64,000 nt of DNA from an uncultured delta proteobacterium (GCA_963771465.1 CAVYTU010000008.1:128001-192000), one strand, 5' to 3'. Positions 28,205 to 28,321 are shown, counted from the first letter of the stretch. Program-made: numbers and translations. The notes: generated by a model not told the origin, from the letters alone.

Positions 28205-28225
28205 GGCTTATCTCCACGCTAAGAT

Positions 28226-28258
28226 AAAAAAAAACCCAGACCAAGGCCTGGGCTTTTT
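28226..28258 (-). terminator. Intrinsic terminator in the guaB 5' leader
   Basis: Minus strand AAAAAG-CCCAGGC-CTTG-GTCTGGG-TTTTTTTTT, ending 21 nt before the guaB ATG. Confidence 0.75.
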
Positions 28259-28292
28259 GCGCCGCTCGATTGTTTATGAGCAAACATGAAGT

Positions 28293-28321
28293 CTTATACC
28301 AGGATTTTTTTTGCGCAGCAA
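28293..28321 (-). promoter_or_regulatory. Putative sigma70 promoter for guaBA
   Basis: TTGCTG-17nt-TATAAG with extended -10 TG. Confidence 0.6.

Follow-up and report, generated by a model that had tools for sequence, protein, structure and literature searches.

The guaBA operon considered here lies on the minus strand of a 64,000-nucleotide stretch of DNA (GCA_963771465.1, CAVYTU010000008.1:128001-192000), the whole of which is called the window below. The host is an uncultured soil bacterium of the class Binatia, and DNA of the window was matched in soil and rhizosphere metagenomes. An earlier description of the locus, made from the sequence alone, had placed guaB and guaA downstream of a promoter, a short open reading frame (ORF) and a terminator, with a divergent gene upstream; Pfam domains and coordinates agree with this arrangement of the genes (Table 1). 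No second full-length copy of guaB occurs in the 6.9-Mb genome. The start codon of guaA overlaps the stop codon of guaB in the sequence ATGA at 26738-26741, an overlap that suggests translational coupling between the two genes. Because the upstream neighbour, a Zn_ribbon_8 gene, is divergent, no upstream gene needs the terminator that stands before guaB.

The motif TATGATAGCAAC is conserved ahead of this divergent gene. The zinc-ribbon gene was considered as a partner of guaBA and rejected, as it adjoins guaB in only 14 of 30 loci, all of them in the window's own genus (g1). The sole above-threshold Rfam matches in the window are two tRNA genes on the minus strand (10784-10857 and 18090-18161).

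Table 1. Features of the guaBA locus, in coordinates of the window.
Feature	Position	Strand	Remarks
guaA, GMP synthase, 510 aa	25209..26741	-	Pfam GATase, GMP_synt_C
guaB, IMP dehydrogenase, 488 aa	26738..28204	-	Pfam IMPDH (2.8e-160) and CBS
guaB ATG	28204	-	21 nt after the T-run
guaB Shine-Dalgarno (SD) sequence, GGAG	28212..28215	-	GGAGGTGA in most relatives
Short ORF, 22 codons and TAG	28219..28287	-	TAG at 28221-28219; runs through the terminator
T9 run (U-tract)	28226..28234	-	T7-T9 in all relatives
Terminator hairpin, CCCAGGC-CTTG-GTCTGGG	28235..28252	-	7 bp including one G-U; arms 28252-28246 and 28241-28235
A-rich tract, AAAAAG	28253..28258	-	Adjoins the stem on its 5' side; in the predicted fold, paired with the U-tract's first residues
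ATG, predicted +1 and candidate leaderless start codon	28285..28287	-	5 nt after the -10 element
Extended -10, TGgTATAAG	28293..28301	-	TATAAG 28298-28293, TGg 28301-28299
-35 hexamer, TTGCTG	28316..28321	-	TTGCCn in most relatives
Zn_ribbon_8 (FmdB-like) gene, 77 aa	28386-28619	+	Pfam; divergent from guaB

The promoter and the ATG that follows it (TTGCTG-17-TATAAG, then ATG 28287) are present on the minus strand as first described, with a 17-nt spacer between the two hexamers. A promoter scan missed the element at 28293-28298 because the tool demands a T at the last -10 position; it proposed two other candidates farther upstream, the -10 hexamers of which are lost in the nearest relative. Throughout the class the -10 hexamer ends in G or A (TATAAG, TAGGAG, TAAGAA) and not in the usual T, which is unusual yet conserved. 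No SD sequence precedes the leader ATG in the window, and the geometry of the site, with a -10 element, 5 nt and an ATG at the predicted transcript start, plausibly fits that of a leaderless mRNA. Since only 21 nt separate the T-run from the guaB ATG, there is no room for a further promoter, and guaBA must be transcribed through the terminator.

The hairpin and its nine T residues, 21 nt before guaB (28252-28226), were likewise confirmed. A terminator scan lists the guaB hairpin, with 13 pairs if the A:U extension of the stem is counted, and it dominates the predicted fold of the leader (-32.3 kcal/mol, z -2.4). Stems of the form GCCC...GGGC followed by U are the usual form of a terminator. 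Within 2 kb, five terminator-like sites were found against 2.7 +/- 1.6 expected; a lone promoter-like or terminator-like site is thus not beyond chance, and it is by its conservation that the element is raised above chance. Runs of at least nine T occur 45 times in the genome, both strands counted, and six of them directly follow a perfect hairpin, which places the guaB terminator among the strongest type in the genome. Among 11 terminators that lie shortly 5' of gene starts under strict criteria, only that of guaB is, by eye, without an upstream gene or coding context. The earlier proposal of a promoter-proximal terminator dedicated to guaBA is supported by the comparison with relatives and by the hairpin pattern, which is single-copy in the 6.9-Mb genome. 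The promoter-plus-ATG pattern has no second genomic copy either, and the idea of a regulon was dropped on these grounds. Canonical intrinsic terminators are scarce in this genome as a whole, in which a perfect GC-rich hairpin precedes 165 of 6456 runs of at least six T.

RNA from the region was sought among the assembled contigs of four soil metatranscriptomes, and six RNA runs match parts of it. One contig of 270 nt spans 28009-28276, running across the terminator into guaB and ending 11 nt inside the predicted start. A start at 28287 and the existence of read-through RNA would both agree with this contig, a weak hint given that DNA carry-over is possible. Positions 28277-28352 are uncovered by RNA contigs, a gap that proves nothing because contigs cannot show ends. 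The T-run of the contig has one base more than that of the window (T10 versus T9, 28225-28234), a strain-level variant in the length of the U-tract.

Conservation of the leader in the order and the class

The comparison that is unbiased with respect to the leader was drawn on guaB itself. A search of 41 genomes of the order yielded 30 loci, three of which are without the 5' end of the gene or its upstream DNA, and all 27 complete upstream regions carry the -35 hexamer, the extended -10 element, the ATG at 5 nt, the stem and a run of T7-T9. The exact hairpin with its T-run is found in 91 of the 123 genomes of the order (a count that includes the unpublished genomes G196 and G213) and in 48 of the 58 high-quality genomes, and a reversed control pattern is found in none of the 123. 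The genomes counted here, like the loci of the species-wide scan below, were picked out by the very pattern that is being counted. There is one copy of the hairpin per genome, except for one genome with two guaB copies, and guaB lies downstream of the exact hairpin wherever the flank was retrieved. Twenty non-matching genomes were followed up: seven have no guaB match (assembly gaps), one has only a 39%-identical match with an unrelated upstream region, and in two guaB is cut at or near a contig end; six have variants of the stem, and four have lost the terminator.

The stem variants stay paired. The G-U pair is replaced by A-U once and by G-C twice, an A-U pair by G-U or G-C, and one C-G pair by U-G. 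In an alignment of 43 distinct hairpins, most of which were found by way of the pattern itself and were thus selected on it before being counted, 99.5% of cells are paired, the loop sequence is free, and the score for covariation, 0.152, was reached by none of 500 shuffles, which gave 0.100. At pair 6-26 of alignment A2, within the A-rich tract, A-U occurs 29 times, G-C nine times, G-U four times and C-G once; the alternatives are A-U, G-U and G-C at pair 10-22, and G-U, G-C and A-U at pair 12-20. Analysis of covariance in the guaB upstream regions of relatives, which the sequence-only reading had proposed as a check, finds the pairing kept and the covariation above that of shuffles. Judged from these patterns, the hairpin is under selection as an RNA stem. 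Across the three families of the order, GuaB proteins are only about 71% identical and the sequence of the stem is almost invariant.

The elements upstream of the stem are equally constant. The -35 hexamer with its 17-nt spacer is kept in all 47 unique leaders of the order, and TTGnnn class-wide; the motif TGnTAnnAn is kept across the order. An ATG 5 nt after the -10 element is invariant in the 47 leaders of the order, in 10 variant leaders together with G116 and G150, and in 38 leaders of the class, so that the position of this codon, to which the earlier description had drawn attention, is fixed in every leader inspected in the order and the class.

A scan for the hairpin and T-run in one genome per species, across 185,579 species, returned at least 118 loci. 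Among the matches listed, 30 of 118 precede guaB, whose start lies about 50 nt downstream, and each of these has a promoter and leader of the Binatia type; the other 88 listed are ordinary terminators of unrelated phyla, mostly with the stem CCCGGGC/GTCCGGG. The records that hold the 30 guaB loci are titled Candidatus Binatia or, with the same leader, Deltaproteobacteria, Candidatus Eisenbacteria, Verrucomicrobiia or Candidatus Udaeobacter, and it is by these matches that the window was assigned to the class Binatia. In some records with one of the last three titles (L032, L050, L108 and others), the guaB leader is of the Binatia type and the N-terminus of GuaB shares 76-79% identity with that of the window, which suggests wrong labels or binning errors.

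Within the window's family, four species of a single genus (g118; L164-L167) have lost the stem, and their T-run is interrupted. These species keep the promoter, the ATG and a 28-codon ORF, which ends in a TAG that overlaps the guaB start. The same genus includes three other species with an intact hairpin and one sampled genome without a guaB match.

Beyond the order, we compared the guaB upstream regions of 49 Binatia genomes of other orders. Seven of them, which belong to four families, have as the start of guaB itself the ATG found 5 nt downstream of TATAAG, TAGAAG or TATAAA, with TTGnnn 17 nt upstream, and no SD sequence is present (L152, L190, L194, L195, L196, L197 and L220, of families f4, f79, f81 and f82). 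This arrangement indicates that the guaB mRNA of these seven genomes would be leaderless. In forty of the 49, this promoter and ATG (mostly ATGG) stand ahead of a 31-134 nt leader, after which comes guaB with its SD sequence, and two have neither arrangement. Of 38 class leaders, 33 contain a GC-rich hairpin that is perfect over 6 bp or more, with a family-specific sequence on a base of AGCCC...GGGCU. Among these 33, at least four T residues are found in the eight bases after the hairpin in 21, which is an undercount because the A:U extension of the stem uses up part of the T-run. That leaders of this kind are found class-wide implies that the layout is ancient; each family is free to have its own stem sequence, and no element is more constant than the ATG at the predicted transcript start. 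The ancestral guaB of Binatia may have been leaderless.

The 5' leader and the short ORF

The part of the leader that precedes the terminator holds little conserved structure. The sequence-only reading had seen alternative pairings there (TGTTT/AAACA versus GCTC/GAGC), and these did not survive comparison: they are not conserved, and RNAalifold returns the terminator only. Across 31 leaders it adds no pair to those of the terminator, and a conserved 5' helix or antiterminator was rejected accordingly. One unpublished genome, G005, is included in these leader comparisons and in the draw on guaB. Individually, the 5' leaders fold barely above their shuffles (mean z -0.7). A hairpin between an anti-SD of CCTC-like bases and the SD sequence after the T-run seemed by eye to covary, but was set aside with a mean z of -0.37 against shuffles. 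The first 8 nt, ATGTTTGC, are kept in 29 of 31 aligned leaders of the window's family; the leader starts with ATGGA in the other two families, and ATGTTC, ATGTTG and ATGGTT occur as variants within the window's family. The approximately 25 nt between nt 9 and the stem hold no conserved sequence or helix. In composition the leader is 39% A and 21% G, and it contains no G-rich tract or pause region.

The leader had also been judged too short for a canonical purine riboswitch, with which an Rfam scan without a leader match and the only ~35 nt before the stem concur. The best Rfam scores of the leader are below threshold (22.5 versus 55 for rnk_pseudo and 20.9 versus 47 for rimP), and both of these alignments cover the terminator alone.

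The ORF that opens at ATG 28287 reads through the hairpin to its stop at 28219 and encodes 22 amino acids, as originally described. The earlier reading had made the conservation of hairpin and ORF a matter on which it should stand or fall. The hairpin is conserved, and so is the open frame in the window's family; the sequence of the peptide is not. Leaders of this family are AT-rich enough to give a test for stop codons power. In none of the 31 does a stop interrupt the ATG frame before the hairpin; when the other two frames are read, stops fall in 14 and 11 of the 31, and shuffles give 14.3 +/- 2.7 leaders with a stop. With later variants added, one of 35 leaders stops, 10 nt before the hairpin, and the probability of one or fewer is 0.084, 0.0011 or 0.00026 when 8, 16 or 18 sequence clusters are counted. 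There is no such signal in the other two families of the order, in which 5 of 16 leaders have a stop versus 5.8 expected.

In the order as a whole, 42 of 47 unique leaders have an ORF that reaches into the hairpin, and the ORF stops 8 nt before it in four and 20 nt before it in one; when variants are added, five leaders of the other two families stop at 8 nt and one at 20 nt. Families f6 and f75 provide 11 leaders, and in seven of these the ORF is 6-17 codons long; it ends about 10-15 nt short of the hairpin in five, at the foot of the hairpin in one and within the loop in one. The distance from ATG to hairpin is 32-35 nt in the window's family. The peptides vary freely and share only MFA or MD at their start, and neither their sequence nor the frame through the hairpin is conserved among relatives in the order. 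An open ORF was rejected as class-wide proof of translation: GC-rich families are open in all frames (29, 28 and 27 of 38 leaders), and with three frames equally open, openness has no force as evidence there. Multiples of three separate the leader lengths in family f72 (95, 68, 134 and 134) and those of four of five leaders of f77 (85, 97, 109 and 124). There is no general conservation of frame, since the lengths in f74, f75, f76, f80 and f6 are not multiples of three apart.

At the level of the genome, no peak of TANNNT is seen 5-7 nt before start codons and the use of SD sequences is strong, from which it follows that leaderless genes are not common in this organism. The ORF ends within -22 to +5 nt of the guaB start in the order. 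Conserved SD and codon sequences give stops near the guaB start in every frame, so that coupling is not shown by this proximity. In favour of translation stand the invariant ATG, the use of the same site as the guaB start in sister families, the stop-free frame and the retention of the ORF in species whose terminator has decayed. Taking these together, we consider that the short ORF is probably translated. The leaderless translation proposed from the sequence alone is made plausible by the same comparisons, namely the fixed position of the ATG, the leaderless guaB of the sister families and the open frame.

A possible attenuator and its relation to known systems

Synthesis of GMP is known to be controlled by promoter regulation in enterobacteria and by guanine riboswitches in Firmicutes. 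The Binatia leader resembles the guanine and purine riboswitches that precede gua and xpt genes in Firmicutes (RF00167) in the proposed control of GMP synthesis by premature termination; unlike them, it has no aptamer and no Rfam match. More broadly, none of the Rfam cis-regulatory families considered (purine, PRPP and ppGpp riboswitches, rnk and rimP leaders) reaches its gathering threshold.

A closer likeness is to the pyrBI attenuator of E. coli, in which translation of a leader is coupled to transcription in a UTP-sensitive manner. Both have a promoter-proximal intrinsic terminator within a leader ORF, ahead of an operon for nucleotide synthesis. No conserved alternative helix was found in the Binatia leader, and pyrBI has no antiterminator; the sequence of the peptide would be irrelevant in both, and read-through would be expected with a close ribosome. 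As in pyrBI, the terminator lies between the promoter and the first structural gene, and the leader ORF runs into or through it in the window, although not in part of families f6 and f75. The Binatia ORF differs from that of pyrBI in that it lacks an SD sequence, begins at the predicted +1 and precedes a purine operon. In addition, the Binatia leader has about 35 nt before the stem and no nucleotide-rich pause region, whereas the pyrBI leader is much longer and has U-rich pauses.

The trp and his attenuators share with this leader an ORF, a terminator and a deciding role for the position of the ribosome, but have regulatory codons and conserved 1:2 or 2:3 helices, which it does not. Indeed, neither a codon run nor mutually exclusive helices, the two marks of amino-acid attenuators (trp, his, leu and mycobacterial Cys), were found. 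Reiterative transcription, as in B. subtilis pyrG and E. coli pyrBI, codBA and upp, provides another model of protein-free nucleotide sensing from a short leader with conserved first bases, to which TTT at nt 4-6 in the window's family might be likened. Unlike in pyrG-type control, this T-run is absent from the other two families and variable in the window's, and the 5' arm of the stem, CCCAGGC, holds nothing complementary to it or to U-runs.

Leaderless leader peptides have reportedly been seen in the transcriptomes of Deinococcus and Corynebacterium. The transcript predicted here would resemble these and their mycobacterial counterparts in beginning with AUG and in carrying a short ORF that lies 5' of a biosynthetic operon and controls it; for mycobacteria, leaderless short ORFs are described as attenuators in the parts of a preprint available to us (bioRxiv 10.1101/834739). 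As those accounts present them, such ORFs sense an amino acid through codon runs, and the Binatia peptides have no conserved codon run. Leaderless genes are, moreover, common in those phyla and not in this genome.

Full-text searches of the literature found no terminator-based leader-ORF control of guaBA, and no account of a riboswitch, attenuator or terminator in a guaBA leader of this kind from Binatia or Binatota. The main text of a survey of premature terminators is silent on guaB, guaA, purine and GMP, although the survey's supplements could list such leaders (PMC2965389). The same reservation about supplements applies to a paper on GTP homeostasis in S. aureus, the text of which, so far as available, has nothing on guaBA leaders (PMC11953324). 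A switch on the guaBA leader would thus look like a previously undescribed one.

As the best explanation of the leader we tentatively propose a ribosome-dependent, pyrBI-like transcription attenuator of guaBA that is built on a leaderless short ORF, with the relative speed of polymerase and ribosome as its likeliest input. From a sigma-70-type promoter, transcription would begin on the A of ATG 28287 or immediately beside it, which would put the start codon at the 5' end of the RNA. A 70S ribosome would then load on the 5' AUG without an SD sequence and translate a short ORF to whose sequence the device is indifferent, and the intrinsic terminator would begin 36 nt downstream, within this ORF. 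Should polymerase reach the U-tract before the ribosome comes near, the hairpin would form and an RNA of about 62 nt would be released. Should the first ribosome follow closely, it would cover the 5' arm, block the hairpin and allow polymerase to continue into guaB and guaA; as in pyrBI, an antiterminator helix would not be required. A low supply of nucleotides would slow polymerase and favour read-through, with GTP as the natural candidate for the signal. Given the conserved parts, and with neither a conserved alternative helix nor an aptamer, relief of termination by a ribosome would be the simplest device.

Excerpts from work on E. coli bear on this geometry (PMC4824070). In the experiments so excerpted, a stop codon 5 bp before a terminator cut its efficiency from ~90% to <10%, and a terminator 30 bp after the AUG remained largely efficient except where pausing couples polymerase and ribosome, as in pyrBI; the reason given is that the first ribosome lags unless polymerase pauses (PMC4824070). 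With the Binatia stem 32-35 nt after the AUG, these excerpted results imply that the default should be termination, and that relief should come when polymerase is slowed relative to the ribosome. It is tempting to go further and to regard the leader as a protein-free GTP sensor, a leaderless purine counterpart of pyrBI in which a pioneer ribosome races a GTP-slowed polymerase that perhaps pauses at G-11G-10...U-3C-2U-1|G+1. Such a pause would fall in the 3' arm, before the last three G residues close the stem. This specific version is possible but unlikely. The extended pause consensus, as given in a part of the source available to us, is G-11G-10T-3G-2Y-1G+1 (PMC6062546), and the leader has one match to it, at five of six positions, in the 3' arm of the stem. 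An elemental pause was rejected as the cause of the invariant stem and its G-U pair, since L163 and L169 lose G-10 and L162 and L173 lose T-3 with pairing kept.

Several other explanations have to be weighed against the proposed attenuator. The same hardware might take translation capacity as its input, that is, the availability of 70S ribosomes or IF2, or (p)ppGpp, and so act as a growth-rate feed-forward. In E. coli, growth rate and the stringent response govern the guaBA promoter. In the Binatia leader the AUG is the only invariant 5' feature, the A-rich and weakly structured sequence would suit ribosome loading, and there is no G-rich pause region. In most leaders the ORF also stops close to the guaB start or at it, but stops arise there in every frame, and translation alone hardly relieved the E. 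coli terminator placed 30 bp after the AUG in the excerpted experiments (PMC4824070). We regard this reading, too, as unlikely, if worth keeping in mind. Still less probable are four other explanations. A trans-acting factor, be it an RNA-binding protein, a small RNA or a metabolite, might set termination, with the ORF incidental and the ATG kept for the promoter or by ancestry. The near-invariance of the stem over families with such divergent GuaB proteins would then be accounted for, as would the ORFs that end before the hairpin in part of the class and the rarity of leaderless genes in the genome; yet the ~25 nt from nt 9 to the stem offer neither conserved sequence nor helix, no second hairpin suggests a regulon, the stems of other families are quite different, and the variants seen are explained by single steps via G-U. 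As a factor also leaves the frame-specific absence of stops in the window's family unexplained, we think such control quite unlikely.

It is improbable as well that there is no switch, and that the terminator is a constitutive damper passing a fixed fraction of polymerases or the ~62-nt leader a functional small RNA, even though no alternative structure was found, an A-tract, stem and U9 form the classical layout of a small-RNA 3' end, the octamer ATGTTTGC is so widely kept in the window's family, and some lineages dispense with the terminator. A damper needs neither an invariant ATG at +1 nor an open frame, and the octamer is absent from the other two families and variable within the window's own. 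The inverted repeat, near-perfect over 7 bp and conserved in sequence, could in principle be a DNA operator for a dimeric repressor of elongation or initiation. Its half-sites differ consistently, however, the G-U pair being a C-A mismatch on the other strand, and this asymmetry is kept in 40 of 43 sequences, the exceptions restoring RNA pairing; T7-T9 always follows on the guaB strand, the loop sequence is free, and other families have unrelated stems. An operator is therefore very improbable. The same holds for a small riboswitch with a purine-related ligand: the position 5' of a purine gene is right and the terminator could serve as expression platform, but no Rfam family comes near its threshold, the best alignments touch the terminator only, and past nt 8 neither bases nor helices are conserved in the ~35 nt that precede the stem.

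If the proposed attenuator is real, it would extend pyrBI-type nucleotide sensing to purines, and it would show that, beyond Actinobacteria and Deinococcus too, ribosomes can enter an attenuator at a leaderless start codon. The class also offers a natural experiment on the rise and decay of leaders, in a series that comprises a leaderless guaB, leaders with a terminator and leaders in which the terminator has decayed. For Binatia, a lineage widespread in soils, the guaBA leader provides a first handle on gene regulation.
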